Source: Promethearchaeota archaeon
GTDB lineage: Archaea > Asgardarchaeota > Heimdallarchaeia > Hodarchaeales > Hodarchaeaceae
DNA length: 32,000 nucleotides
Assembly (NCBI GenBank): GCA_048938105.1
Contig: JBHLMN010000005.1
Coordinates: forward strand, 207,036 to 239,035
Reading direction: 5' to 3'
A model generated the notes under the pieces. The model did not search any database. It was not told the origin of the DNA and worked only from the letters and a program-made list of their open reading frames with translations. How positions within the stretch are numbered: position 1 is the stretch's first letter; every line of letters starts with the position of its first letter. Both the position numbers and the translations under genes were made by a program. Shown here one piece after another: positions 1,305 through 28,906 of the stretch.

Positions 1305-2822
1305 TTACTTTAACAAAAATTTGGAGTCATCATCAGATAATATTCCTTTTTTTTTAAATGTGATCAATAAAATGCTAAGGAAGAAAAAAATATGTGAGAT
1401 ATCAGAGAATGGACTAGTATGATTAGATGTTGTTGTAGACATCTTTGAAGTGGTGTTATTACTTACTCCAGTTTTTGTTTCGGTAGATTGGCAGGATGGT
1501 AAACTATCAATATTTTTTTGTACTCCTTCAATAATGGTGATGTCAATGCTAGTGGAAGGTCCCGAGCCTCTCTCTTCAGGGGCAATTGGTGTATTTTCAG
1601 AGATGTAACTAGTGATTAGATACGCCTCATCAATTAATGAACCTGAAAATGACTCAGTTATTGTACTTGTTTCCAAATAATGTACGTTTTGATTGACATA
1701 CCAACCATGAGAATCATGTACAGCAAGGGAAATCCCAATCACATCCTGTGGGACCTTATTAATGATGACTGTAAAGTTATTCGGTGGAGCTTCTAGTTTG
1801 TGAATATAAAACGCATAATGATTGACAGAGATGGTTTTATTAGCTAGTGGTAGTTTATCCACTACTTCATAATTAGTGATTCGGGCATCAAATCCTTCAA
1901 ATCCAAACAGATTATTCTGAAAACCTAATTCATCTAGAGTAAGAGTAGTAATCCAGTTCATAAAAAGCTCATTAAATGTTATATCATAACCTGCTGCATG
2001 TAGAACTGTTTCAATTCCATGAGGGCCATCATCAGGTTCGGTTATCAGGTCTCGAAGAATATCTACCCCATATTTTTCAGCAATATAGAAAGCAAAAAGA
2101 TATGCACTTCCATAATCTTGGTCATCAGTCCAATATAATGGTGAATTTTCAGGATGAGGTAAATAAAAAGCAACTTGGGGAACGAGATTATTATATGGAC
2201 CTAAATACCCTGCATGATAAGTTGCATATTGAGCTAGTGCTTCCAAGGTAAATGGTGGTTCACCCCAATCATTATTAAACCAAATAAGATGATGAAATTC
2301 ATGAGCCATTGTTGCATATAACCAATCATGATGATAAAGTCTGTAACAAATGTAAATCATTTCACAAAGATTAGAAACATTATGTTCTATGTCATTAACT
2401 TCAGAATAGTAATTGTAATTGTCAAGAAATAAGATGTAGATTCTCGGATCACCATCGATATCTCCCATCGTCCCATTGGGATGGCCAGCCAGGTCAATTA
2501 TACGGGGATATATTACATTGTCAAATTCATAGCAAATTTCTTCCACCTTTGCCATGATAGAATTCTCTCCCAGTTTTGGTATACACTCTTCTTCCATATA
2601 AATGTAACACCAGTCACCAATTGCAAGTAACCTAGAGTTTACTTCCCAATATTCTTTTTTGATATAATTATATGTCCAAAATACTCGTTCTTCTTCAGGT
2701 TCCTTACTCATTGTTGAATTATTAAGAGTAATTGCTAAATTGACCTTATTAGTAACGATGGGGAGGGAGATAATAGTGGAGATCATACATAAAACGATAA
2801 TATGTGATTTAGTCATATACAT
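1305..2822 (-). CDS. secreted, C-terminally membrane-anchored zinc metallopeptidase (HExxH, gluzincin-like)
   Basis: N-terminal hydrophobic signal/anchor. Zinc site MAHEFHHLIW with a Glu about 20 aa downstream (EALAQY). Ser/Thr-rich stalk (TETKTGVSNNTTSKMSTTTSNHTS), then a C-terminal TM helix (IFFFLSILLITF) followed by KKKG. Confidence 0.75.
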   Translation of the reverse strand: MYMTKSHIIVLCMISTIISLPIVTNKVNLAITLNNSTMSKEPEEERVFWTYNYIKKEYWEVNSRLLAIGDWCYIYMEEECIPKLGENSIMAKVEEICYEFDNVIYPRIIDLAGHPNGTMGDIDGDPRIYILFLDNYNYYSEVNDIEHNVSNLCEMIYICYRLYHHDWLYATMAHEFHHLIWFNNDWGEPPFTLEALAQYATYHAGYLGPYNNLVPQVAFYLPHPENSPLYWTDDQDYGSAYLFAFYIAEKYGVDILRDLITEPDDGPHGIETVLHAAGYDITFNELFMNWITTLTLDELGFQNNLFGFEGFDARITNYEVVDKLPLANKTISVNHYAFYIHKLEAPPNNFTVIINKVPQDVIGISLAVHDSHGWYVNQNVHYLETSTITESFSGSLIDEAYLITSYISENTPIAPEERGSGPSTSIDITIIEGVQKNIDSLPSCQSTETKTGVSNNTTSKMSTTTSNHTSPFSDISHIFFFLSILLITFKKKGILSDDDSKFLLK

Positions 2823-4716: not shown

Positions 4717-5406
4717 TCAATTCTCGGCTGAACTTTTCTTTAATAAAAGATATGGCATTAAGGATGTGAATAACTTGTTTTCTGCTTTTCGTAAAGTCTT
4801 TTCAACAGCATATCTAGAAACCTTAAATTCGTCCGCAAGATCTTGAGTTCTAATTCTCCGTGGAATTTCATAATAACCTTTTTCAAAAGCTCCAATAAGA
4901 ATCAATAGTTGATGTACAGTCAAATCGCTGGTTAATTCTGCTATAGAAATCATTTGGGAGGGAAATATTCCTTCAGATTCTAATTCCTTTATGGAAATAA
5001 TCTTTGTTTTGGGATATGTTTGCAATACTTGTACCACTGAGGATAAAATGGAGTTATCTAAGCATACGATTTGATAATGGCTCCATCCTCCCGAATATCT
5101 TATTGGATAAATCGATATACCTCCCTGTTGTTGAATCTGTGAATTAATTGTTTTATCACAAAGACATTTCATACTAATATACGAAATTGTTGTCGGATTA
5201 CTATCAATCGTCGTAATTTTCCAATCATGAGTATTTGGATAAAGATTGTTGGCTATTTCCATATTTTTTTCGTTAATCTCACCTGGAATCATTAGTATAT
5301 CGAATTTTGAATTGCAGTATCCATAAATCTCTTTCATTAAGAAGGATTTTGAAAAATTAAGATGAGGAGAATCGTGTTGAATTTTAATCCGGAGTTCTAT
5401 TACCAT
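4717..5406 (-). CDS. HTH_10 (bacterio-opsin activator/Bat-type) transcriptional regulator
   Basis: The C-terminal segment LTVHQLLILIGAFEKGYYEIPRRIRTQDLADEFKVSRYAVEKTLRKAENKL matches the archaeal HTH_10 pattern (LT..Q...L..A...GY...PR......LA.......S......LR.AE.KL). The N-terminal ~160 aa is an uncharacterised putative sensor domain. Confidence 0.75.
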   Translation of the reverse strand: MVIELRIKIQHDSPHLNFSKSFLMKEIYGYCNSKFDILMIPGEINEKNMEIANNLYPNTHDWKITTIDSNPTTISYISMKCLCDKTINSQIQQQGGISIYPIRYSGGWSHYQIVCLDNSILSSVVQVLQTYPKTKIISIKELESEGIFPSQMISIAELTSDLTVHQLLILIGAFEKGYYEIPRRIRTQDLADEFKVSRYAVEKTLRKAENKLFTSLMPYLLLKKSSAEN

Positions 5407-5510
5407 AAATCAATCCCTATCTAGAAATTAATTTTCGATTCAAAAATCATGTCAAAGCGGCAAATCTACTAATTCTAATTCCTTAATCAATAATTATTTT
5501 TCAAGACTTG

Positions 5511-5536
5511 AAAAAAAAGCGGTTGCTTATGCAACC
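5511..5536. promoter_or_regulatory. A8 run + GGTTGC-TTAT-GCAACC palindrome (copy 2)
   Basis: Read directly: AAAAAAAAGCGGTTGCTTATGCAACC, followed by ATAATATAAG. It lies in the 508-bp divergent region between the HTH regulator (start 5406, minus) and the MttB homologue (start 5915, plus). Confidence 0.5.
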
Positions 5537-5881
5537 ATAATATAAGATTACTTAAAAGATTACATTCAAAAAAAGGTGAAACGTTAATTCATTCTGAGGT
5601 GCTGCTGGTTTTTTTAAGGTGAACATAATAAGAATTTGAGCTCTCTCTCCTCTCTTTAAGACTGGTTAGATATGAAAAAGGTATAAAAGTGGATTACTGA
5701 TAATGAAACAGTAAAACAGGACACATATACTATGAACCTTCGCTTTATTAACAAAGATAGGACGGACAGAATGAGAGAAATCTTCAGAATGAATTCTATA
5801 ATAGGTAATTCCAGAATCAAACTCTAGCAAATAACACACAAAATTATCATCACTTTCTCTTTTCTCTTACTTCTACGGAAA

Positions 5882-5890
5882 TTTTTATAA
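5882..5890 (+). promoter_or_regulatory. TATA-box-like element for the MttB-family gene (near-leaderless transcript predicted)
   Basis: TTTTTATAA centred about 29 nt upstream of ATG 5915. No Shine-Dalgarno in between. The spacing fits an archaeal TATA-to-TSS distance with a start at or near the ATG. Confidence 0.3.
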
Positions 5891-5914
5891 TGTCACGGAA
5901 TTCTTGGATTATTT

Positions 5915-7345
5915 ATGTTAAAATTGTCCATTTTAACCCAACAAGAACAAGATTCAATTCATACCGCTGCGTTAAAGGTATTAAAAACCGTTGGTTGTGA
6001 GATTCAAGACAAGAAATGGCTGAGTCTTTTAGCGAAAAATGGAGTAAAAGTCGATTATACAACTTCGAGGGTTTTTATAACTGATGAAGACATTGTTAAC
6101 TCCTCACTTGAATCTTGTGGTCACTCGATTAAATATGCAGCTAGAGATCCCCAAAAAGATTGGATTATAGGCCAAGGAGTGGCTAAAACCCATACACCAG
6201 AAGGTATAACTCATGTCATAGAATTGGAATCAAGATGTCACCGAGAAGCCCAATTATCTGATCTAGCAGATATTACAAAAATTTGTGACTTTCTTTCCAA
6301 TGTCGATGGTATAATTGATCCTGTTGTTCCTTATGATGTTCCTCCTGCTATACAAAGTGTCATAATAACAAAGACACTGATAGAAAATACAACAAAACCA
6401 ATTGATCCAGCAGGGATCGCTTTGAAGAAAGGATTTCCTTTTGTTATGCAGATGCTTACTACTCTCCTTGGAGATCGAGATATATCAGAATACAGCTTAG
6501 GTGTTGGTGTTACCGCTACAAGTCCATTATTATTTCCATTTGACCAATTAGATACCTATTGGCAAGGAATTGAGCTAGGATCATCCTGTGATGTAGGTTC
6601 GATGCCACAGGCAGGATCGACTGCTCCTGCCTCTCTAGCAGGAACATTAACGTTGTTTGTCGCTGAAATATTAATGGGACTCATTATGGGACAGATAAAA
6701 AAGCCTGGATTATCTCAATTTGTATTTGTACGACCGTGCCTTTCGAATCCACGTTTTGGGATATTTAATTCAGGTCCGCCCGAGGTTGGATTGCTCCAGG
6801 CGGCAGCCACTCAATTCTGTAAGGAAAAATACGGCCTTCTTGTTAATGCAGGTTGGGGTGTAAGTGATTCCCATTGTATTAGTCCCCAAGTAGCCTATGA
6901 AAAATGCTATATTTGGATGATGTCATTAGCTGCTGGTGCAGATATGATTTCGGGTGTTGGAGGCCTCGGTAGTGGGTTAATATCTTCTCCTGCACAAGTT
7001 GTTATTGATGATGAGATTATTGCTCACCTTAGACGAGGTGTTCAAGGAATTACCGTGGATGATTTCCATTTAGGCGTAGAGATGATTGAAGACACTGGTA
7101 TCGGGAACACATTTCTTTTTCATCCAAAAACAAGCCAGATTATTAGGGAAGAATGGCTATTATCTGAACTACCAAGTCGGAATTCTTTTAGTACTTGGCA
7201 AAATGCAGGTGCTCTAGATCTAATTAGTAGAGCAGAAAAGAAGGCAAAAGAAATTCTTGCGAATCATGAGGTAGAAGCATTGGATCCCAGTCTAGAAGAA
7301 GATCTTAACTGTATCCTTAAAGAAGCCAAAAGAACGTTACTATAG
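5915..7345 (+). CDS. mttB: MttB-superfamily (trimethylamine methyltransferase-like) methyltransferase, non-pyrrolysine type
   Basis: 476 aa. N-terminus LSILTQQEQDSIHTAALKVLKTVGCEI...KNGVKVD is typical of the MttB family (L...Q...IH.A.L.IL...G). Length is right for the TIM-barrel. The frame is uninterrupted, with no in-frame TAG. Confidence 0.8.
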   Translation: MLKLSILTQQEQDSIHTAALKVLKTVGCEIQDKKWLSLLAKNGVKVDYTTSRVFITDEDIVNSSLESCGHSIKYAARDPQKDWIIGQGVAKTHTPEGITHVIELESRCHREAQLSDLADITKICDFLSNVDGIIDPVVPYDVPPAIQSVIITKTLIENTTKPIDPAGIALKKGFPFVMQMLTTLLGDRDISEYSLGVGVTATSPLLFPFDQLDTYWQGIELGSSCDVGSMPQAGSTAPASLAGTLTLFVAEILMGLIMGQIKKPGLSQFVFVRPCLSNPRFGIFNSGPPEVGLLQAAATQFCKEKYGLLVNAGWGVSDSHCISPQVAYEKCYIWMMSLAAGADMISGVGGLGSGLISSPAQVVIDDEIIAHLRRGVQGITVDDFHLGVEMIEDTGIGNTFLFHPKTSQIIREEWLLSELPSRNSFSTWQNAGALDLISRAEKKAKEILANHEVEALDPSLEEDLNCILKEAKRTLL

Positions 7346-8156
7346 GAAAAGATACTGGACTCTAGAAATAAATTTTAAACCTTACATTAAGAAAATACTT
7401 GAAAAACCTAACTTTTCCTTAATCATTACTCTTTTAATAAAAAAACCATTTCTTAAACATGATTTGATTGGATGGACTACATAAACCAACTCTAGATGAA
7501 CACCACTTAATTCATCAAAAAGTGTCTGAATTCTTCTTATCATGATTAATTGACTTGAATCTTTAAGTATGCAAAAATTAATACTGTTGAAATTTTAGTA
7601 CTAAATTGAAATCAAGAATAGGAACATCAGGAATTATAAAACTCTATCTATCCTAGAATTATAGTTGATGTACTTATCTTCTAGCGAATACCATATGGTT
7701 AGCCTTATAAAGGAAGAAAGATTACATTGTAACTGAAAATATAATGATTAAAAATTCGAATAAACCTCAGAATGAAGGAGATATCACAGATATTATAGAA
7801 GTACTAGAATTTCTAAATTATGACGGTACAATAAGCTTTCATGATATAGATTCCACTGTAGCAGTTCATTAACATACAATATCATTTTTATAGTTAGGAA
7901 GGAGCATTTTTGCAGTTATTATCCCTACTGATTATGATTTTCAAATATAAATCTCTGGAAAATCCAATCTAGGCTTTCATAGCAGCTATACTCAATGTCA
8001 GAAAAAGCTGGATTATATTGTAATGGTAAATGGTGATACCAAAAGTATTAGGTAAATCTTCTTAAAATTACTCCAGAGGAAATTTAAGAAGCTCTTTGGA
8101 TTGGTTGTTCTCCTGATGTGAGAATTATCACATCATAAAGAGTTTAAATGCTGGAA

Positions 8157-9788: not shown

Positions 9789-10358
9789 GTGGCAATAATT
9801 GCAAAAATCTGCTTATGTGGCGATGGGGAGGTAGGAAAAACGTCGTTACGTAATAGATATTTAGGCCGAGGCTTTCAGAGTGATTACTTGCCAACTCTTG
9901 GTTCAGATTTTGTATCAAGAAAGGTTATGATAAAAAGTAGTTCAGAATCTAAAGAGATTCGTTTTCAAATCTGGGATCTAGCCGGTCAACCAGCATTTAA
10001 TCAAATTAGGCCCCTTTATTTTAAGCAAGCTGTAGGTTCCCTACTTATATTTGATATTACTAGACCAAAAACATTATACAATTTAGAAAGATGGGTGGAT
10101 GAACTCAACCAGAATTCTGGTTGTACAAAAATGGCAATAATTGTACTTGGCAATAAATCGGATTTAAAGGATGGAAGTACAAATCAGGTTACAAGAGAAG
10201 AGGCAAAAAAGTTCATTAAAAACCAGTTAACAAATCAATCTTATAATTGCATTGATAATACAATACCTTTTTTCGAAACTTCAGCAAAAACAGGTGAAAA
10301 TGTTAATCAAGCATTCGAAGAACTAGGATTAAAAATATATTCAAATTTTTATTATTGA
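9789..10358 (+). CDS. Rab/Ras-like small GTPase (Asgard-type), no C-terminal prenylation Cys
   Basis: G1 GDGEVGKT, switch I YLPTLGSDF, G3 WDLAGQ, G4 GNKSD, G5 ETSAK. GTG start. The C-terminus is ...KIYSNFYY with no CAAX/CC. Confidence 0.9.
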   Translation: MAIIAKICLCGDGEVGKTSLRNRYLGRGFQSDYLPTLGSDFVSRKVMIKSSSESKEIRFQIWDLAGQPAFNQIRPLYFKQAVGSLLIFDITRPKTLYNLERWVDELNQNSGCTKMAIIVLGNKSDLKDGSTNQVTREEAKKFIKNQLTNQSYNCIDNTIPFFETSAKTGENVNQAFEELGLKIYSNFYY

Positions 10359-11867: not shown

Positions 11868-12737
11868 ATGGTATTATTTGATATAATTTGGACAGAACTA
11901 CTGAGAGATCTGTTTCCATGGGCAGTTGACGCTTTCAAACTGATTACAGAACTTGGATCGAGCGCTATTTATCTAGCAATAATTTTAATCATTTTTTGGG
12001 GGATCGATAAAAGATTAGGTATGGTAACCACTTTTGTTTATATCGGTTCTTCTATATTAAATTATTGGGTCAAAGCCATTTTAAAATATCCTCGACCAGC
12101 TCCCAGTCAGTGGTTAACTAGTGCAGCGAACTATAGCCTACCTAGTGGACATGCCCAAAGTGCAACCACGTTCTATGGCTGGCTTACTCTAAAAATTAAC
12201 AGATGGTGGATGTTTATTATTGGAACAACTTTGATCATCCTTGTTGGGATTTCACGTATTTATTTAGGAGTACATTGGCTAGGAGATGTGTTACTTGGCT
12301 GGGGAATTGGAATAGTGATTATCATATTGGTTTGGCGCTTTGAAAATCCTATTAGTGATTATCTCTCCAAGTATAATACCTATCATCTATACATAGGCCT
12401 TGTGATTTTAGGAGGAATCGCTATGGTTCTTACTGAATTAATGCTCCCTGTCCCCACTGATAATTTTGGTGGCAGTGTAGGAATTGTTATTGGCATAGGA
12501 ATTGGTTTAGCCCTTGAAAAGAAATTTGTAAACTTCACAGTTAAAACTCCAGAAAAAGAGACATGGAAAATCTTTTTACGTATAAGTATAGGCTTAATCT
12601 TAGTCCTAGTTGTCTATTATGGTACATCTTTATTCTTAAGTTCTGAAGATGTTTTAACGGCAGCTCTTCTCTATTGTCTTATCGCCTTAGTTGGGGCTTT
12701 TGTCTGGCCTTTGATCTTCTCCAAGATAGACCTTTAG
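11868..12737 (+). CDS. PAP2-family membrane phosphatase (phosphatidic acid / polyprenyl-diphosphate phosphatase type)
   Basis: All three PAP2 motifs are present: KAILKYPRP (Kx6RP), PSGH, SRIYLGVHWLGD (SRx5Hx3D). Multiple TM helices. Confidence 0.85.
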   Translation: MVLFDIIWTELLRDLFPWAVDAFKLITELGSSAIYLAIILIIFWGIDKRLGMVTTFVYIGSSILNYWVKAILKYPRPAPSQWLTSAANYSLPSGHAQSATTFYGWLTLKINRWWMFIIGTTLIILVGISRIYLGVHWLGDVLLGWGIGIVIIILVWRFENPISDYLSKYNTYHLYIGLVILGGIAMVLTELMLPVPTDNFGGSVGIVIGIGIGLALEKKFVNFTVKTPEKETWKIFLRISIGLILVLVVYYGTSLFLSSEDVLTAALLYCLIALVGAFVWPLIFSKIDL

Positions 12738-17655: not shown

Positions 17656-20600
17656 TCACATCTCTTCCTTCTTTTTTTGAAAATTGTGCTTAACCATAAG
17701 AAAAATCATTTCTCCCTGCAAAGAATCATTATCAATGGATATATTAGAATTTAACCATGATCCATCCCATAATTCAATCGAAACATTTTCTCCAGCAGAA
17801 ACCACCCCATTAATCGTTATACTATAAACTGGTTCATCTTGAGGTATACCAACTGCTTGATGTTCCCATTGTAAATGAAAATCATCAACCAAAAAAACAT
17901 TCTCTTCTGAACCATACAATATCTCTACTGCATTATTTACATCTAATGAAGAAGATAATGATGTTGCAGTCGAATTGCCATAATAAAGATAAATTACTTG
18001 ATTAGATGTAGATAAATCACCATCCAGCTCCACCCAGAACCGAGCATGTTTCCCAATAGTGCCATTAAGGAATCCTTTTGATCCCCATGCATACAGTTTC
18101 ACAAAATCAAAGTCTGATCCTGCAATATGCCACTCTGTATTATAAATTATAAGTTCCTGATCATATCCACCACGAGGAATAAGGCCATAATGCCACCCTT
18201 TTCCAGACACATAATCAAAAATCGTTTCTTCTAAGGTCCATATTTTACCATTCCAAGAATACTGAGCAAAATCTCTAGTTGGAGCTCCAATATATGCTGT
18301 AATATTAGTAGAATCATGAACAACAAAATCAATAGTAGGACTATTTCTATAAAATCCCTGATTCACTTCCTCTACAGCCGACCAAGATGAAGAAGTCTCA
18401 TTCCAATAACGAAACATAACCTTCTCTTGTCTTCCATCTATTATCCCCCACATAATATACGGATTTGAATTACTATCTACATGCACTGTTTCAGAAGCAC
18501 ATGGATCTGTTTCAGAATCATACACCCAGCATGAATACTGCTCAGTATTATTAATCATCGTTCCCATATCGTAATCAGAAGCATTAAACAGATGTCCTGA
18601 TGTTACATTTAAATAAGCATAAAAAATACTTTCATATTGAACAGATCGTGTGATATTATACCGTTTCCATACAAGATGAAGAATCTCTGGATTATTAGGA
18701 TCTAATTCACCCTGTTCTTGGTAAGGTCTTTCTGCATTTGCACCACCGTTTAGGTTCAAATCAATAATTGTTTGGCTATTACTCCACGTATATCCTCCAT
18801 CGGTGGAATTGCAATAAGCTATCACCAATCCTACACCTCCATAAATTTCACGATAATGTAAATGGACCACATCATTAGTAGAATCGTAAAAAAGATGTGC
18901 ATATGTTTGATCAGGACTCCCATCGTCTGATGTTCCCCATACGCCTGTCATATTCCCCTCATTCACATGAGTCCAACTTTGAATAGATTCAGGTGTTTGA
19001 GAAACATAGTGTTGAAAGTAGTCATTGTGGGAACCAGCAAACACATGAATATACCCATCATTAGTTACATAAACAGCAGGAGACCCATGACCATCAGTAT
19101 AACCAAGAACATTTTCACTAATATAAACCACATCTCCCCATGTGTCATTTTCATGGTCATAATAAGTAATATGTATATTCATATAATGTTGATTACTTGA
19201 TTGATCCAAGTCTCCCTGAAATACAAGATATGTTCGATTATTATAATAGTAAGCTGCTGGATAATTATAAGGATAATGTCCATGAAAAACAGAACTGTTA
19301 GTAAAATAGCGATAAGAACTATCTTCCTCATACGTCCTTTCAAGCCAATAATTAGGCAATGTCTTACCCTGATCATCAGTAAAACGAATATCATCAAAAT
19401 CCACTTGACACTTTCCATCAGTAAAAACGCGAATTCCATGATCTAAAGATGACTGAAAATAATCTCCATAGTAGACATCAAGAGGAATAACATAATTTTG
19501 ACCTGTTGAAACATCACGAGGTATAAATAACAATTTTCGATAATCCCACCCCTTTAACCATGATACTTTCTCAATATAAGTCACATTCACAAACGCATGA
19601 TGAGAATTCACATGTTCATACGCCTCCAATTGATTGTCAGTAGCAAGAGAATAAGATAGATACCGATCTAACGAAAATTGCACTCCAAAATAATTACCTG
19701 ACGACCAATCGGCTAAATTGACCTGATCTTGAAGCATATCGGTAATATCTGTTGTAATCCATTCCCCCGCATTCTTATTGAATGTATGATGAGCTATATT
19801 AGTATCTACAACCTCTGGAATTACTGAATCCCTCTCAAGAGGCCCAACATTACTCTCATTGATTCTTCGGATAGTAGCATCATATTCAATAAACTCTTGA
19901 ATTTCCCAAACAGTCACTGTGGCATATTGTATTGTTGAATATTGTGGAATAGCAAGACTCCAACGAAAATTTGAATACGCTCGCCCACGTTTGTCATCGT
20001 AACACAATCTTCCAATAGTTTCTTCCGTATGATGAGTCCATCCAGACTTGTATTGCCAATAATCATCATCCATCCCAGCTGCAATTGGAACGACAAGATT
20101 CCTAGATAACTCCTCCTGATAACTAATATTTACATACGCATGATGAGAATCTGGATGTGAATAATCTTCAAAACTATTACTAGCAGTTATTTCTGAAACC
20201 ATTATAAACCGAACTCCAAAATAATATTCTGACTGCCACCCAGCAAGATTTACCTGATCTTGCATCATTGCAGTAATATCAACAACCCTCCACTCATTTC
20301 CAGTTTTGTCCCATTCATAATCAACAGAATTTTGAGAAGTCACTACAGGCATTACGGTATCTGCCTCTAAAGAACCAACATTGGTTTCGTCAATACGCTC
20401 TACTATCGTATTACCAGTTGTACCATCCACAATTTCCCATAGTGTTAAAGTAGCTGATAATATAGTAACTCCCTGATTTAGATTAATCTGAAACCGCATC
20501 TGCCCAAAATTCGTTGCTATAGCTGAAAGATCCCCTACTCGTACTTCATCTGACGTAGTATAATGTGTATAAGCTCCCGCTTCCTCCTGATTTCCAAAAT

Positions 20601-21918
20601 CCATAAATGTAGAGGGATCATTTTGATTATTCCATTCTGTCAAAATCCAATCCGATGTCCGATCTGTACCAATAACTCTCATCTCATCTAAAGTACCATG
20701 CATGTCATTCTTTGGCCCACCCGTTACCCCAGCTAATCGAAGCTCTTCAGCCGTATTTTTCATGGCAATATAACTTCCACTCATCCGCCTAAAACTGGAA
20801 TTATCTTGACCATTTAGAAATACACTAAGACCTTCCTCTGTTGAATCACCGTTGTATACCCAATGAATTAAGTACCAATTTCCCACTTCCAAAGAATCAG
20901 AGCTATAAACACGTATATATGAAGAAGGAGAATCATGACCATAACATACAAGATATAATCTGCCATTAGACGAAAGGGTAGTGAAATATTCACGATTTGA
21001 AAAAGTTTTAGAAAAAATAATCTGCTCACGGTTTATCTCACTTGGTTTATACCATACACTTAAGGTAAAAGGAAAATCCTTTATTCCATTTCCAAATGAA
21101 AAGTCATCATGATCAGGAAGTTCAATGAACTTATCACTTCCATCGACATACTTTCCTCCTGCGATGTGTCCATCCGCATTCAGGGCACCATAATTCGTTC
21201 CATTATGATGATTTGTTGTGGAATCATCAAAATTGTATTCATTTAAATGCCATACCGCATGGTACTCATTATCCCAAACATTTTCCAAATCTTGTTGACT
21301 AGAAATAGTATTATTCCCATAATACATCAAAATTGTAGTATCACTACTTGTGGATAAAGATGGTATCCGAACCCATGCAGTTAATTCTCCATTTGTACCA
21401 TTATAGAATTCAATTTCATGATCTAACTGCGTTGTACCCTGATAAAACGCAATGTCATCTCCATCATCCTGTGCATAATCAGCTAAATCGGAATCAATAG
21501 TATTTATAAGAATAGTAAAATTTGTGTGACTGCCAGAACCACTAATATCATCAGAATCAAGTGTTATTTTTTTTCGATAATTCCACGTGTTAAAATATAA
21601 TCCTCCTGATATAAAGTTCCACATATCATCATCCGAATCATCCATTATCTCGGAAGATATTGTATGTTCTCCCACAAAAAACGGATTTTTCTCCGTAATA
21701 TTTTGAAATCCCCCATCTGACGATTCAGTATCACTATGATCGCCTGAACTTGAACTAGAATTCTCTGTACTGTCCGAAATAAATACTTTTGTATCTTTTA
21801 CATCTTCCATTGAACTAAGACTGTATAATATTAGCATACATACCAAAAAAACAGAAATTAAAACCAGCTTTTTTCTCCTATTACTCATTATCAACTCACT
21901 TTTTCTTCTCATTTTCAA
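17656..21918 (-). CDS. giant (about 1420 aa) N-terminally anchored surface protein: DUF2341-like + LamG/ConA-like + 2x ~160-180-aa repeat + DUF2341-like + BNR/sialidase-like beta-propeller region
   Basis: Anchor KKLVLISVFLVCMLILY. DUF2341 pattern WNYRKKITL...DGDDIAFY...WVRIPSL...ILMYYGN, and again WDYRKLLFIP...DFDDIRFTD. LamG pattern VWHLNE..DSTTNHHNGTNYG..GKYVDGSDKFIELP..FTLSVWYKP..WYLIHWVYNG..LSVFLNGQ. The track start is TTG at 21918; ATG at 21912 or 21888 (MSNRRKK...) are more likely starts. Confidence 0.85.
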   Translation of the reverse strand: MKMRRKSELIMSNRRKKLVLISVFLVCMLILYSLSSMEDVKDTKVFISDSTENSSSSSGDHSDTESSDGGFQNITEKNPFFVGEHTISSEIMDDSDDDMWNFISGGLYFNTWNYRKKITLDSDDISGSGSHTNFTILINTIDSDLADYAQDDGDDIAFYQGTTQLDHEIEFYNGTNGELTAWVRIPSLSTSSDTTILMYYGNNTISSQQDLENVWDNEYHAVWHLNEYNFDDSTTNHHNGTNYGALNADGHIAGGKYVDGSDKFIELPDHDDFSFGNGIKDFPFTLSVWYKPSEINREQIIFSKTFSNREYFTTLSSNGRLYLVCYGHDSPSSYIRVYSSDSLEVGNWYLIHWVYNGDSTEEGLSVFLNGQDNSSFRRMSGSYIAMKNTAEELRLAGVTGGPKNDMHGTLDEMRVIGTDRTSDWILTEWNNQNDPSTFMDFGNQEEAGAYTHYTTSDEVRVGDLSAIATNFGQMRFQINLNQGVTILSATLTLWEIVDGTTGNTIVERIDETNVGSLEADTVMPVVTSQNSVDYEWDKTGNEWRVVDITAMMQDQVNLAGWQSEYYFGVRFIMVSEITASNSFEDYSHPDSHHAYVNISYQEELSRNLVVPIAAGMDDDYWQYKSGWTHHTEETIGRLCYDDKRGRAYSNFRWSLAIPQYSTIQYATVTVWEIQEFIEYDATIRRINESNVGPLERDSVIPEVVDTNIAHHTFNKNAGEWITTDITDMLQDQVNLADWSSGNYFGVQFSLDRYLSYSLATDNQLEAYEHVNSHHAFVNVTYIEKVSWLKGWDYRKLLFIPRDVSTGQNYVIPLDVYYGDYFQSSLDHGIRVFTDGKCQVDFDDIRFTDDQGKTLPNYWLERTYEEDSSYRYFTNSSVFHGHYPYNYPAAYYYNNRTYLVFQGDLDQSSNQHYMNIHITYYDHENDTWGDVVYISENVLGYTDGHGSPAVYVTNDGYIHVFAGSHNDYFQHYVSQTPESIQSWTHVNEGNMTGVWGTSDDGSPDQTYAHLFYDSTNDVVHLHYREIYGGVGLVIAYCNSTDGGYTWSNSQTIIDLNLNGGANAERPYQEQGELDPNNPEILHLVWKRYNITRSVQYESIFYAYLNVTSGHLFNASDYDMGTMINNTEQYSCWVYDSETDPCASETVHVDSNSNPYIMWGIIDGRQEKVMFRYWNETSSSWSAVEEVNQGFYRNSPTIDFVVHDSTNITAYIGAPTRDFAQYSWNGKIWTLEETIFDYVSGKGWHYGLIPRGGYDQELIIYNTEWHIAGSDFDFVKLYAWGSKGFLNGTIGKHARFWVELDGDLSTSNQVIYLYYGNSTATSLSSSLDVNNAVEILYGSEENVFLVDDFHLQWEHQAVGIPQDEPVYSITINGVVSAGENVSIELWDGSWLNSNISIDNDSLQGEMIFLMVKHNFQKKKEEM
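19576..20589 (-). repeat. intragenic tandem duplication (two protein modules, 20119-20589 and 19576-20118) inside the giant surface protein
   Basis: Both units start QEE and end SHHA(Y/F)VN(I/V)(S/T)Y. They share (L/V)T(L/V)WEI, NVG(S/P)LE(A/R)D(T/S)V(M/I)P, GEW..(V/T)DIT.M(M/L)QDQVNLA(G/D)W and YFGV(R/Q)F. The period is 543 nt. Confidence 0.85.
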
Positions 21919-23047: not shown

Positions 23048-25099
23048 ATGGAACCGCAAAAAACCATACTTTTACTCAATGCAAGTAACCTTAAGACTGC
23101 GTTGATGTATCCTTACGCGTTCGTTCAAGTTTCAGAGATTGCAGACAGATTTGGCATTCATACTGTCCGTAACGATATGTATGGGATTTCAGAAGACCAA
23201 TGGGAGGCCAATCTACAGAAGTTGCTTAAAAAAAAACTCTTCGATATGATATTAATTACATTGAGAAACACAGACACCTGTGATTCAAATGATTATCGTA
23301 AGCGGTCTAAGAATACTAATTACCACCAACAGAATGTTTTTCAACCACCTGAACCACTAAATTATTATCCAATCGACGCTACAAAACTTCTAATTCAAAT
23401 TCTTCGGAAACTAACTAATATTCCTATTGTCATTGGAGGATATGCTTTTTCAAAATTATGTTTGGTTATGCCAGAAAGGATAATGAAATACCTCCAACCC
23501 GATTATGGTGTCATTGGAGGGCCTGACGCCTTTTTTAAACATTTTGAAGACATATTAGATAGACAAGATTTAGATCAGATTGCCAATCTAGTCTATTATC
23601 ATTCAGGGGCTCTCCAAACAGGGCCACGCCAGTTTTTTCCCCCAGCACCCCGTCGTGAGTATACGGATGAAATCATTGCAGACCGACTGGTTTTCTATTC
23701 TAGGTTTCCAGGGGACAATGGAGAACTTAGCTCTGTTCCCATAGAAGCGGTTCGGGGTTGCGCAATGAAATGTTCATTTTGCTCAGAACCTTTAGTTGAG
23801 GGGAGAAAGGTACAACACAGAGATTTAGACGTAATCGAAGATGAAATCAACTTTCTTAGGAAGTATCGGTTGAATCAACTGTTTTTTATATGTTCTGAAA
23901 TTAACACTGACAGTAATGAATATCTGATGAACCTCGCAGATCGCATAATTGAAATTAACGAAGAGAGGGAGGAATACGAGAAAATATCATGGTACGTCCT
24001 ACATCTTATGACTCTCTCTACTGATGAATTGAAACACATCAGAAAAGCGGGTTTTCTCGAAGGTTCAAATGATGTTGTTTCTCTGGATGATAACAATCTT
24101 GCAGCAACTAAGGCTCCTCTAAGGACTAATCAAATCATCAGATTTTTTACTCAAGCAAAAAAACTGGTCAGGGAAGAGTTTAGACAAAATGGGAGAAAAT
24201 TTTACTCCTTAGAGGAACGTATATTCAGATATCCCCAGTCTTTGAACCCTGATGACTTTATGAATGCTTGGAATATCTTTCTCGGAAACATAGAAGTTAC
24301 CCCCAAAACTATCCGAACCACATTAAAAAGGGCAGATGAAGCCAAACTTAACCAATTCTTTGATTCTTGTTATGTTAATAAGGCAACAAGATTATACGAT
24401 TATATACATCCAACTGATGAAATATTAAAATACACATGGTCATCAGTCAACGGAATAGTCAAAAAATCATATAATGAACTGTATCCTTCTTTTGTATATC
24501 CTCCAGCACTTTTACGTCATTTTGGTAGTGATGAGGTTTTAGAAGAGTTTTTTGAATTGGTAGGAGATACTTACCTCTCGCTCAGACATCTCTTCAAGAA
24601 GGATTGGAATTGGTTTTTAGCTAATAATCTAGATTCAAAAACTTTCTTATTCTGGTGGAATTCATCAATTGAATCTCAATTTGATTTCAATAACTTTACA
24701 CAGATACCAGAGGTTCTGGATTTTCTCTCTTTTCTACGTAATAATCCTTCGGCAAATAATATCAACCTATTCTTCAATCCAACACCAGGTAGAAGGCCCC
24801 TAATGAATTTTGCAGCCAATATAGCTGTACAATTTGTGTTATTTTCTCAAGAAAAAGATCTTACTCCAATCATGCAGTATCTTGGCTTGCCTCCAAATCT
24901 TGAAGCCACTCTGAATCTTTCCCCCTACAAAGTTGCGGTGAAGTTCTTTGAACGTTATTCAAATAAAGATGAATTGTATTTAATCATAAATGAAAGTTCA
25001 TTTAACAAAGCTCTCTCTAGGTTCTTTGTTGATTACTTGATTTATCTCAATAATATTCCTTTCAAAGCTGAATATCAGATATTTTTTGTCCCTAGTTAA
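23048..25099 (+). CDS. B12-binding-domain (class B-like) radical SAM enzyme with a ~330-aa uncharacterised C-terminal extension
   Basis: N-terminal Rossmann-like unit (ILLLNASNLKTALMYPYAFVQVSEIADRFGIH ... DMILITLRN ... IPIVIGGYAF). CxxxCxxC cluster in VRGCAMKCSFCSE. No SPASM/twitch Cys cluster in the C-terminal part. SD GAGGT about 10 nt upstream. Confidence 0.85.
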   Translation: MEPQKTILLLNASNLKTALMYPYAFVQVSEIADRFGIHTVRNDMYGISEDQWEANLQKLLKKKLFDMILITLRNTDTCDSNDYRKRSKNTNYHQQNVFQPPEPLNYYPIDATKLLIQILRKLTNIPIVIGGYAFSKLCLVMPERIMKYLQPDYGVIGGPDAFFKHFEDILDRQDLDQIANLVYYHSGALQTGPRQFFPPAPRREYTDEIIADRLVFYSRFPGDNGELSSVPIEAVRGCAMKCSFCSEPLVEGRKVQHRDLDVIEDEINFLRKYRLNQLFFICSEINTDSNEYLMNLADRIIEINEEREEYEKISWYVLHLMTLSTDELKHIRKAGFLEGSNDVVSLDDNNLAATKAPLRTNQIIRFFTQAKKLVREEFRQNGRKFYSLEERIFRYPQSLNPDDFMNAWNIFLGNIEVTPKTIRTTLKRADEAKLNQFFDSCYVNKATRLYDYIHPTDEILKYTWSSVNGIVKKSYNELYPSFVYPPALLRHFGSDEVLEEFFELVGDTYLSLRHLFKKDWNWFLANNLDSKTFLFWWNSSIESQFDFNNFTQIPEVLDFLSFLRNNPSANNINLFFNPTPGRRPLMNFAANIAVQFVLFSQEKDLTPIMQYLGLPPNLEATLNLSPYKVAVKFFERYSNKDELYLIINESSFNKALSRFFVDYLIYLNNIPFKAEYQIFFVPS

Positions 25100-26778: not shown

Positions 26779-27193
26779 CTTGTTTTAACCTAATCCATTT
26801 CTGAATACTCGGATATGTGTTTGATAGCCAAATCCCTATAATAATGGTTAAAATGAGAATAAAATGATTTAAATGGCGATTATTGAAGAAACAAAACAAC
26901 TGGAAAAGATAATTTCTAATACTAGTTATTTAATCGTTTTCTTATAAAAAAATATATAATTAAGAATATATCTCATCTCAAATAACCTTTTAGAATCAAT
27001 ATACTCAACCAATCCTAGATGAGATTAAAAAAGAAATACATTAACAAGCATTCATCTTTTCTCCGTTAAATTAGTGATAACTTATGGGGCTGCCTTCGTG
27101 AGTTCTAAAAGAGTCAAATCTCGCTCTAATGAAATCTTAACCTTAGCTTATACTTTTAAAACTTATACAAAACGATTTAAGCGATCCTTCTAC

Positions 27194-28300
27194 ATGATTC
27201 TTGACCGAAAGAATCCTATACAGCTAAAACAATTCCCAGATGAATTTCTCAATGCATTTAATAATGTAAAAACCCCTGGAGTTGCGTTAAAACATTATTA
27301 TAAGTTAATTTTACTGTTATTCTTAGCTAGAAATGACTTCACCGATTTAAGTAAAAATGAAATCGATGTAATTTTCACGGAGGTTGGAGTTGAATTATCA
27401 ATAGATGTGTGGAAGAAATTAACAGGGCACCTAAGCAATAATTCTGACAATCTTATATACAAAATGAGGTTGGGGAAAGACACCAGATTATTATTTTCCT
27501 CTAATAAAGATTTAATTAAGATAATGGAGAGATTAATTTCAAATTCTCAATCTAGTGAACCTCCTCACGACTATTCATTAGCAATATTTAGTAAAACGGC
27601 TCCTAAGGATAAGAATAACGTTGATTATTGCTTAGATTTTTCTAACTATTTCAAAACAGGGATGCCTTCAGAGGATCAATGGTTAAGCATTGAGGATGAA
27701 ATAACGACAGCAATTGAAAATATCTATGAAACTCATTTTGACACAACCCTTCTATTAAAAGAATGTAAGCCTCATACTTCTCTTGCTTTCATTCTAGGCC
27801 ATTCGGTTAATTATTTTGAAAGTCTAAAGTTATTTATTTATCAGAACGGTCAATATTGGGAATACGAAAAGATAAATGAGAATATTTATGCCTCTAATCA
27901 CTGGACTCTTTCTACTAAATACAGAAAACCTGTAAATGAAGATGAAATAAACGTCATGATAAGTGTTAGTGACCCAATTATACGATATGTTGAAAAATAC
28001 CTTCAAAAAGATAAAGAAAAGACAAAATTCACAATTCACTTTTCAATCAAACCAGAACCACAAGTAAACAGTATTACTGATCAAAATGATGCGTTGAAGA
28101 AAATTGATGCTATTTACACATACCTTACACGGCTTAAAGCAAAAATCCCTTATATAAAGATTCACCTATTCTTATGGGCTCCTGTAGCTTTCATAGTATT
28201 ACTTGGAATGAGACTTGCCTCGGTAGCCCGGGTTCAATTATATGAGTTTGACCAAAAAGCAGGAAATTTTGTGCCTAGCATTTTACTAGATCGATATTAA
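27194..28300 (+). CDS. SAVED-like (tandem CARF-like, cyclic-oligonucleotide sensor) domain protein with uncharacterised helical N-terminal domain
   Basis: C-terminal half has two units with the hhhxxPxxhhhxhG...hxhY(E/Q) pattern: KPHTSLAFILGHSVNYFESLKLFIYQNGQYWEY and IHLFLWAPVAFIVLLGMRLASVARVQLYEFDQKAGNFVPSILL. The track ORF begins at GTG 27074; the first ATG (27194, MILDRKNP) is preferred. Confidence refers to the domain call; the CDS itself is about 0.85. Confidence 0.55.
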   Translation: MILDRKNPIQLKQFPDEFLNAFNNVKTPGVALKHYYKLILLLFLARNDFTDLSKNEIDVIFTEVGVELSIDVWKKLTGHLSNNSDNLIYKMRLGKDTRLLFSSNKDLIKIMERLISNSQSSEPPHDYSLAIFSKTAPKDKNNVDYCLDFSNYFKTGMPSEDQWLSIEDEITTAIENIYETHFDTTLLLKECKPHTSLAFILGHSVNYFESLKLFIYQNGQYWEYEKINENIYASNHWTLSTKYRKPVNEDEINVMISVSDPIIRYVEKYLQKDKEKTKFTIHFSIKPEPQVNSITDQNDALKKIDAIYTYLTRLKAKIPYIKIHLFLWAPVAFIVLLGMRLASVARVQLYEFDQKAGNFVPSILLDRY

Positions 28301-28611
28301 CCTTTATTTTTCAACAAATGCCATTAAAACACCGTTTGAATTCCTAAAGATGGTTAAATCTAATTTCTTGTATTTTTCGCACAATGTCGCACTTTCATGA
28401 ACTTGAAAGAATTAGCTTATTTTCTCTTGAAAAGTAATTTAATAAGTTTATTTTCCATTTAAGTTACTAATTTAATTTATTTTATAGTCTTAAAGTTGCA
28501 CTTATTTGCACTGCTTGTTTAAAACCATAAAATTTAAATACAATTCCGAAAAAGAATATCCTTGACCATAAATCAATGGTCAATATAAGTTTGACTACAA
28601 AGGTGAAAAGC

Positions 28612-28674
28612 ATGACAGAAAAAGAGAAGAAACCAAAAACTAAAAAACCCCGAGCTAAGAAAACAAAGAAATAA
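28612..28674 (+). CDS. polybasic micro-ORF (20 aa)
   Basis: MTEKEKKPKTKKPRAKKTKK*. AAAGGTGAAAAGC immediately precedes the ATG, the same SD block as the next micro-ORF. Confidence 0.25.
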   Translation: MTEKEKKPKTKKPRAKKTKK

Positions 28675-28720
28675 CTTGATAAAATCTTAGTAAAACAACT
28701 AATAGAAAAAGGTGAAAGAT

Positions 28721-28843
28721 ATGAAGAAAGCTCCAAAGAGGAAAGTTCCTCAGAAGAAACCAATCTATGAAGAAGAGGAAGAAGAGGAAGAAGAGGACTG
28801 GGAAGACGAAGACGACGAAGATTGGGATGATGAGGATAATTAA
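28721..28843 (+). CDS. bipartite charged micro-protein (40 aa): basic N-half, poly-acidic Trp-containing C-half
   Basis: MKKAPKRKVPQKKPIYEEEEEEEEEDWEDEDDEDWDDEDN*. AAAGGTGAAAGAT immediately precedes the ATG. A stem-loop follows 30 nt after the stop. Confidence 0.4.
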   Translation: MKKAPKRKVPQKKPIYEEEEEEEEEDWEDEDDEDWDDEDN

Positions 28844-28872
28844 CCTTTTACATTAAAATAGAATATAATACT

Positions 28873-28906
28873 AGGTGATTTTCCCTCTAATAAAGGGAAA
28901 TCACCT
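28873..28906. terminator. 13-14 bp imperfect hairpin between convergent genes
   Basis: AGGTGATTTTCCCT-ctaataa-AGGGAAATCACCT (one bulged T), followed by TTTAATT. It sits between the plus-strand micro-ORFs and the minus-strand tautomerase gene. Confidence 0.45.

Follow-up and report, generated by a model that had tools for sequence, protein, structure and literature searches.

A 32-kb stretch of the genome of a Promethearchaeota archaeon of the Hodarchaeaceae (contig JBHLMN010000005.1; the whole stretch is called the window below) encodes a protein of about 400 amino acids in which a probable DNA-binding winged helix is followed by a SAVED sensor domain. Immediately downstream of its gene lies a compact cassette with two very small open reading frames (micro-ORFs) for oppositely charged micro-proteins. 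We read this protein as a one-component, ligand-gated transcription factor, built on a SAVED domain, that would control the adjacent cassette, and we put the probability of this reading at about one half. A preliminary description of the window had offered three roles for the protein, a stand-alone receptor, a new type of effector or a nucleotide-responsive transcription factor; the evidence laid out below favours the last of them over the first two.

The C-terminal part of the protein, about 250 amino acids, is a bona fide SAVED domain, with two CARF-like Rossmann lobes in a single chain. The Pfam SAVED model PF18145 matches amino acids 232-403 with 78.5 bits (cut-off 26.2; E=7.1e-22), and the NCBIfam model NF033611 matches amino acids 151-406 with 101.5 bits (cut-off 33; E=5.5e-29), aligned over model positions 5-260 of 261. 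About 30 SAVED effector models of PADLOC match as well, the best of them being those of Cap4-type endonuclease effectors. In these alignments amino acids ~120-404 pair solely with the SAVED halves of the Cap4-type proteins, and the Lon-SAVED models align to the SAVED part alone (amino acids ~180-405). A profile built on the family also matches the sequences of the Cap4 crystal structures 6vm5 and 6vm6. The full-length structural model is of low confidence, with a predicted local distance difference test score (pLDDT) of 52, and of ~65-79 in the SAVED region. Searched with Foldseek, it matches Cap4, Cap5, CalpL, 3TM-SAVED and a viral SAVED ring nuclease, with the best E-value (7.5e-11) to Cap4. 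Two units of strand, Gly-loop and helix are seen in the model (strand 225-229 with helix 235-245, and strand 360-366 with helix 371-381), and the two peptides that the preliminary description had quoted as tandem SAVED units are the cores of the two lobes. Its assignment of the protein to the SAVED-type sensors is thus borne out by two of the checks that it had proposed, the Pfam model and the structural comparison with Cap4 and CalpL; the domain itself is longer than the ~190 amino acids first estimated. We regard it as a putative receptor of a cyclic oligonucleotide or a related nucleotide, a role to which purifying selection on the domain (dN/dS about 0.1) speaks only indirectly.

The N-terminal part, about 150 amino acids rather than the ~180 of the first estimate, is a probable DNA-binding winged helix according to structure prediction. 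Residues 1-150 were modelled alone with AlphaFold (model m6fc435062dda), using an alignment that included the divergent homologues P0015 and P0016. The mean pLDDT was 81 and the predicted template modelling score (pTM) 0.75; most blocks of residues 11-150 scored 84-94, and the long basic helix that opens the protein scored 89-92 over residues 11-40. Numbered from the start codon at 27098, the model comprises helix 3-35, helices 48-57 and 64-79, a short strand, helices 86-96 and 102-109, a β-hairpin wing at 120-133 and helix 137-147, which corresponds to the topology α1-α2-α3-αR-hairpin-α5. The putative recognition helix, 102-109, carries the family-invariant motif W105-K106-K107-x-T109. The net charge is +9 over residues 1-60 and +11 over the N-terminal 150 residues.

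Comparison of this model with the PDB by Foldseek gave no significant E-value (best 0.14, with a probability of 0.85 and a target-normalised template modelling (TM) score of 0.54). Nearly all of the 50 best matches are either regulators of the ArsR/SmtB type (HlyU, NolR, SqrR, SmtB, CzrA, BigR and PagR) or winged helices from archaea and viruses. At the level of sequence, no Pfam helix-turn-helix family was found consistently at E<=10 across ten members of the family, and a profile search returned no PDB sequence at E<=10. A Myb_DNA-binding match (E=0.0026) was obtained for one member and not reproduced in the others, and this identity was rejected. When a HMMER profile of the region was searched against 1.84 billion representative sequences, three clusters were retrieved, all of ~400-amino-acid proteins with the same architecture; among these representatives the region was found solely fused to this SAVED domain. 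A degenerate Cap4 nuclease is ruled out as the identity of the N-terminus, since its fold is helical with one hairpin and no nuclease profile matches; the NCBIfam Cap4 equivalog reaches 26.6 bits against a cut-off of 160. The preliminary description had called this part helical, possibly winged-helix, and devoid of nuclease, protease, TIR or transmembrane motifs. The confident model with ArsR/SmtB-like topology agrees with the former point and the profile scans agree with the latter.

The family to which the protein belongs is small, about 16 proteins, found exclusively in Asgard metagenome-assembled genomes (MAGs) from a few sediment series. Repeated searches of a database of 5.8 billion protein clusters returned the same 14-15 homologues, and five loci with the gene were found in the GTDB species genomes. 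The 14-16 homologues of the window protein are 400-408 amino acids long and share a conserved N-terminus. Translation from M41 was ruled out, as residues 9-40 are conserved as protein across the family; the start codon is therefore GTG 27098 or GTG 27074, and NCBI annotates the 400-amino-acid form that starts at 27098. Most members are 64-89% identical to one another, and P0015 and P0016 are divergent branches, 41% identical to the window protein. The other genes common to these contigs are 86-87% identical, and the carriers are therefore close relatives. The conservation of the window gene is about that of ordinary neighbour genes in related genomes. The ratio of nonsynonymous to synonymous substitution rates (dN/dS) is 0.08-0.20 in both the N-terminal region and the SAVED domain: both halves of the protein are under purifying selection, and the gene is not a decaying remnant. 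The source records of the homologues are labelled Thor-, Hod-, Heimdall-, Hermod- and Promethearchaeota despite their close similarity, and these mixed phylum labels are probably inconsistent or unreliable.

The preliminary description had placed two charged micro-ORFs immediately downstream of the gene. Both are real and conserved across loci, and they form part of a larger cassette (Table 1). It contains, in order, two boxes of direct repeats, a TATA-box-like element, a hairpin, the two micro-ORFs and a terminal hairpin. The motif GCAC-N6-GCAC occurs twice in the 32 kb, against 0.05 occurrences expected, and in ~218 kb of related loci all its matches lie inside cassettes and are always paired. 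The distance from box to box is 118-119 bp in eight cassettes and 109 bp in the divergent P0015 locus (L011), exactly one helical turn less. The boxes, which stand between the gene and the promoter, are the sole sequence-invariant non-coding elements of the interval, as would be expected for sites recognized by a protein. The TATA-like block TTTAAATA is invariant in an alignment of five loci, and it or a near variant is present in 10 of the 10 cassette copies examined. In loci L004, L008b and L011 the 5' hairpin has other sequences, yet compensatory pairs preserve its stem; in L013 the stem includes a G-U pair. Since pairing is kept while the sequence changes, this element fits an RNA structure, not a protein operator. 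The TTGACC...GGTCAA palindrome was set aside as the operator: its sequence varies between loci whose recognition helices are near-identical, and its pairing is kept, a G-U pair included, as in an RNA hairpin. The terminal hairpin (-17.7 kcal/mol, z=-3.55 against shuffled sequences), whose position and stem are conserved in the DNA alignment, probably marks where the cassette transcript ends or is terminated. A scan for promoters and terminators of bacterial type is uninformative for archaeal DNA.

Both micro-ORFs are preceded by the arrangement GGTGA-5 nt-start in 8 of the 8 cassettes analysed. A codon-position test gave a weak third-position bias, owing to low complexity, and we take the micro-ORFs as coding because this arrangement is fixed and the reading frames are retained across divergent loci. 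The peptide of 40 amino acids has a basic head and an acidic tail of Asp, Glu and Trp, and its partner of ~20 amino acids is a polylysine peptide. Neither the basic micro-protein, in the variants tested, nor the acidic one was found among ~15 billion called proteins; the micro-proteins match no Pfam family and the cassette no Rfam family. In the acidic micro-protein, the K-K/R-P-I/V-Y-EEEE junction is invariant in close relatives and absent from the divergent L011 copy, and repeated D-W-D/E units are present in the tail of all copies (window, L001, L003, L004, L008, L011 and L013). We take this tail to resemble the acidic tryptophan motifs that bind Arp2/3 in WASP/cortactin-type proteins, a lead only, given its low complexity. 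A Lys/Arg-rich open reading frame (28725..28850, + strand) overlaps the acidic micro-ORF in frame +2 in every locus. It is most likely not a gene, because GAA/GAG repeats yield such a sequence in another frame and it lacks a GGTGA.

Table 1. Position of the wHTH-SAVED gene (wHTH, winged helix-turn-helix), its predicted domains and the elements of the downstream cassette in the window (aa, amino acids; ORF, open reading frame)
Feature	Position	Strand	Details	Evidence
wHTH-SAVED protein gene	27074..28300	+	408 aa from GTG 27074; 400 aa from conserved GTG/TTG at 27098	ORF list, homologues
Long basic N-terminal helix (predicted)	27104..27202	+	aa 3-35 from 27098	AlphaFold model, charge count
Winged helix-turn-helix, ArsR/SmtB-like topology (predicted)	27239..27538	+	aa 48-147 from 27098	AlphaFold model, Foldseek
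SAVED sensor domain	27524..28291	+	aa 151-406 of 408-aa ORF	NCBIfam, Pfam, PADLOC, PDB profile, Foldseek
Box 1, triple direct repeat GCAC-N6-GCAC-N6-GAAC	28379..28402	+	10-bp phasing	
Box 2, GCAC-N6-GCAC	28498..28511	+	119 bp after box 1; ends 21 nt upstream of TATA-like box	
TTTAAATA, archaeal TATA-box-like element, cassette promoter	28533..28540	+		alignment
Hairpin TTGACCAT-N6-ATGGTCAA, predicted transcript 5' end	28562..28583	+	8-bp stem	folding
Basic micro-ORF, 20 aa, MTEKEKKPKTKKPRAKKTKK	28612..28674	+	GGTGA 28602-28606, 5-nt spacer, ATG	
Acidic micro-ORF, 40 aa, MKKAPKRKVPQKKPIYEEEEEEEEEDWEDEDDEDWDDEDN	28721..28843	+	GGTGA 28711-28715, 5-nt spacer, ATG	
Terminal hairpin AGGTGATTTTCCC...GGGAAATCACCT	28873..28906	+		folding, DNA alignment

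The cassette lies downstream of the SAVED gene in every locus with enough downstream sequence, while the flanks are reshuffled. Comparison of the neighbourhoods, as had been suggested at the outset, thus leaves the micro-ORFs as the sole conserved neighbours of the gene. A full cassette is present even in L011, on the 41%-identical branch of P0015. In L012, on the P0016 branch (1857..2222), variants of the boxes (GAAC-N6-GCAC) are found at the same 119-bp spacing, and a single basic micro-ORF of 40 amino acids (MPKRKMAEKAARRIQSHADRTNTNQGFKARARSAADRNKK) stands instead of the basic/acidic pair; no other micro-ORF of the set has ever been annotated, and this one is listed as a hypothetical protein. 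The cassette is also multi-copy. L001 carries a second copy 8.5 kb away on the opposite strand (20145..19600) and L008 two in tandem (12010..12570). These extra copies are complete, with box pair, TATA element, hairpin, basic and acidic ORFs and terminal hairpin. In a metagenome collection, a composite element of 27 fixed bases occurred once, directly downstream of a family member. Neither family members nor cassettes were present on the viral contigs searched, and a viral or mobile origin was rejected.

The surroundings of the gene were searched for an enzyme that could make a signal. In Pfam and PADLOC scans of all window ORFs of at least 100 amino acids, CD-NTase/SMODS, Cas10, Cap2/Cap3 and cas genes were all absent, and searches of the 32 kb for CRISPR-like repeats, tRNAs and Rfam families likewise gave nothing; these scans agree with the statement of the preliminary description that no cyclase, Cas10 or CRISPR array is present there. 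No cyclase, Cas10 or CRISPR array occurs in the extensions of the window either, which reach ~10 kb leftward and ~3 kb rightward, and the flanking genes of the related loci include no CD-NTase/SMODS or other cyclase and no Cap2 or Cap3. Flanking genes differ between the loci of the family, and the gene is not within a defence island. Metallophos and NTP_transf_2 proteins near the gene in L003 and L004 were considered as a linked signal synthase and rejected, being mutually unrelated and absent elsewhere. In L004, a 920-amino-acid protein (5204..7966, - strand), ~4 kb from the SAVED gene, fuses a Pol-beta-type nucleotidyltransferase motif (GGYARGE...DLDMLL) to Metallophos; since no other locus has this protein, it does not qualify as a conserved partner. 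In L011, an archaeal histone gene (1454..1684) closely precedes the SAVED gene, a HEPN_RiboL-PSP protein (5761..6402) is encoded ~2.4 kb downstream, and both neighbours are seen in this locus only.

We propose the following mechanism. The SAVED domain would sense a cyclic oligonucleotide or related nucleotide signal, the product of an enzyme encoded elsewhere, and the N-terminal basic helix and winged helix would bind DNA. The proposed targets are the invariant GCAC direct repeats, phased by 10 bp, with three half-sites in box 1 and, 119 bp further on, two in box 2. In the adjacent cassette, as in the extra copies elsewhere in the genome, they lie a short distance ahead of the TATA box. Binding of the ligand may align several winged helices in one orientation, by analogy with the ligand-induced oligomers and filaments of other SAVED proteins. 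Among ligand-driven assemblies, PDB titles name a tetramer for Cap5 and a filament for CalpL, the latter formed upon ligand binding (PDB 9eyi title; PMC9704534), and a TIR-SAVED superhelix has been described (PMC9704534). Winged helices held in the same orientation would suit tandem direct repeats, in a manner similar to OmpR/PhoB. In regulators of the OmpR/PhoB type, winged helices sit head-to-tail on direct repeats phased by ~10-11 bp, upstream of the promoter, and binding follows a signal-induced change in the assembly of the sensor domain. Their phosphorylated receiver sensor and their winged-helix subtype are unrelated to those considered here, and they are bacterial; we claim no homology and use them as a working analogy. 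The outcome would be that transcription of both micro-proteins is switched on. Activation is favoured because the boxes are upstream of the TATA box, a position that, among archaeal regulators (Ptr2 is an example), characterises activators more than repressors. As for what the micro-proteins do, we can only speculate that the pair acts as a nucleic-acid- or membrane-active peptide with its neutralising partner, or as chromatin modulators.

Several observations weigh against this mechanism. No signal-making enzyme is encoded in the ~45 kb searched (window and extensions), and the ligand may therefore not be a cyclic oligonucleotide at all. The adjacency of gene and boxes is circumstantial, and another factor could read the boxes. 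Dimers of the ArsR type usually recognize inverted repeats, whereas those of the boxes are direct. The SAVED gene itself has no GCAC box upstream, and the full-length model is too weak to show the ligand pocket.

The alternative that survives best, to which we give a modest chance, keeps a SAVED-gated DNA-binding regulator and removes the cassette from its targets, the GCAC boxes being read by a different factor. The adjacency would then have another origin: the micro-proteins might bind or modulate the SAVED protein, or be co-inherited effectors or antidotes. Indeed, the strict linkage of gene and cassette proves association, not regulation; some cassette copies stand in tandem or at a distance of 8.5 kb, there is nothing to connect GCAC with the recognition helix, and no box belongs to the SAVED gene itself. 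However, genes of transcription factors commonly adjoin their targets, the boxes alone are invariant among the non-coding elements and stand between gene and promoter, and their tandem half-sites fit the same-orientation assembly that would be expected of a SAVED oligomer.

We consider it improbable that the protein is a non-enzymatic defence effector which, once it has sensed a cyclic oligonucleotide, forms polymers on DNA by means of its winged and basic helices and blocks replication or transcription globally, an output of the abortive-infection type. Defence effectors that are activated when they oligomerise make up most of the SAVED proteins characterised so far (PMC9704534), and the charge of +11 makes the N-terminus strongly basic. 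In contrast, the gene lies outside defence islands, no cyclase, Cas10 or CRISPR array is linked to it, its conservation is close to that of neighbouring ordinary genes, it is absent from viral contigs, and the linked cassette and its specific repeats would be left unexplained. The latter objection also applies to a sponge or ring nuclease that removes cyclic oligonucleotides, in signal turnover or anti-defence, with a winged helix serving for localisation or autoregulation only, which appears to us slightly less credible still. The absence of an effector enzyme domain and the match of the model to the viral SAVED ring nuclease 9r8s (E=1.2e-7, TM score 0.53 to the target) would fit such an activity, but the closest profile and structure matches are Cap4-type receptors and not the ring nuclease, there is no viral context, and constraint is as strong on the N-terminal domain as on the SAVED domain. 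A decaying, functionless remnant of a Cap4-type effector of a cyclic-oligonucleotide-based antiphage signalling system (CBASS), with nuclease and cyclase lost, is very improbable: the best PADLOC matches are Cap4-like, some of their alignments extend into amino acids 84-120 and no cyclase is nearby, but the selection analysis largely refutes it, an uninterrupted reading frame is kept by ~16 members, with identities as low as 41%, and the N-terminus is modelled as a well-folded, mostly helical domain and not as a truncated α/β nuclease.

The protein is not a member of the known systems that it resembles. Csa3 is a CARF-wHTH transcription factor that responds to cyclic tetra-adenylate (cA4) in type I-A/III CRISPR loci (PMC8699464; PMC9704534), and the window protein is analogous to it without being a Csa3. 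Both carry a nucleotide sensor of the CARF superfamily and a winged helix on one polypeptide, and the proposed output is transcription, not catalysis. Unlike the dimeric CARF of Csa3, the sensor is here a SAVED domain with two fused CARF-like lobes in one chain; the order is reversed, with the winged helix N-terminal and the sensor C-terminal, a CRISPR-cas context is missing, direct repeats in tandem are the candidate sites, and the winged helices share no sequence similarity. Nor is the protein a member of Cap4 or CalpL. Cap4, the PD-(D/E)xK nuclease-SAVED effector of CBASS (6vm5, 6vm6, 6wan, 7yib), has the closest SAVED domain by profile and fold and shares the signature lobe HLF-x-x-A-P-x-x-F-x-x-x-LG-x-x-L, but its nuclease of ~220 amino acids is replaced here by the helical/wHTH region of ~150, and no CD-NTase, Cap2 or Cap3 is nearby. 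In the CalpL/CalpT/CalpS cascade of type III CRISPR, a SAVED-Lon protein leads to the release of a sigma factor; there a signal read by SAVED changes transcription, as is proposed here. The signal takes an indirect route in that cascade, by way of a protease and an anti-sigma/sigma pair, whereas here a predicted DNA-binding domain is fused directly to the sensor, the protein has no Lon or other catalytic domain, and no cas10/CRISPR locus is found in the window. The ArsR/SmtB repressors (HlyU, NolR, SqrR, SmtB, CzrA, BigR) have a topology like the predicted one and are the nearest solved structures. In contrast to them, the N-terminal region gives no sequence-profile match (Pfam HTH_5/HTH_20-type) and only non-significant Foldseek E-values, has an extra long N-terminal helix, is fused to a SAVED sensor instead of bearing metal or sulfur sites, and lies near conserved DNA motifs that are direct, not inverted, repeats.

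Helix-turn-helix fusions are common among uncharacterised CARF clusters (bioRxiv 10.1101/2024.04.23.590562), and a survey of Asgard defence lists CBASS among the Asgard systems and does not mention SAVED (PMC11291487). No helix-turn-helix-SAVED fusion and no link between SAVED and Asgard archaea appeared in the literature searched, which did not cover Burroughs et al. 2015 and Makarova et al. 2020, so that a prior listing is possible.

The window, whose G+C content is ~32%, also encodes a small GTPase of the Ras/Roc family (9789..10358, + strand; E=9e-42), typical of Asgard archaea, as well as an HTH_10 regulator and an MttB homologue. The sole Pfam match of a 683-amino-acid protein (23048..25099, + strand) is Radical_SAM, slightly below the gathering score (27.2 against 29.5 bits). 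A 1420-amino-acid ORF with DUF2341, LamG-like and BNR_4 domains (17656..21918, - strand) coincides with the strongest GC skew of the window, -0.16 to -0.28 across 17-22 kb.

Almost all that is known of SAVED and CARF sensors shows them as switches of destructive defence enzymes, encoded beside the cyclase that makes their signal. The case described here differs in that a SAVED domain is fused to a predicted DNA-binding domain, is under purifying selection and has no linked cyclase, and in its tie to a defined promoter architecture and to two unannotated micro-proteins. These two, extremely charged, conserved and present in several copies, escape gene callers. The family is tiny, with its ~16 sequences from a few sediment MAG series, and each functional step is one that we infer; at the same time, with one protein, ~160 bp of DNA and few candidate ligands, it would make a system small enough to be put to the test. 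We suggest, tentatively and with considerable doubt, that it represents an undescribed circuit of a narrow Asgard lineage in which a fusion of SAVED and a DNA-binding domain, served by an unlinked messenger enzyme, switches on a multi-copy cassette of oppositely charged micro-proteins. If so, it would be a new kind of output for SAVED signalling, and the charged peptides might act on nucleic acids, chromatin, cytoskeleton or membranes, unlike the nuclease, NADase, protease and pore effectors.

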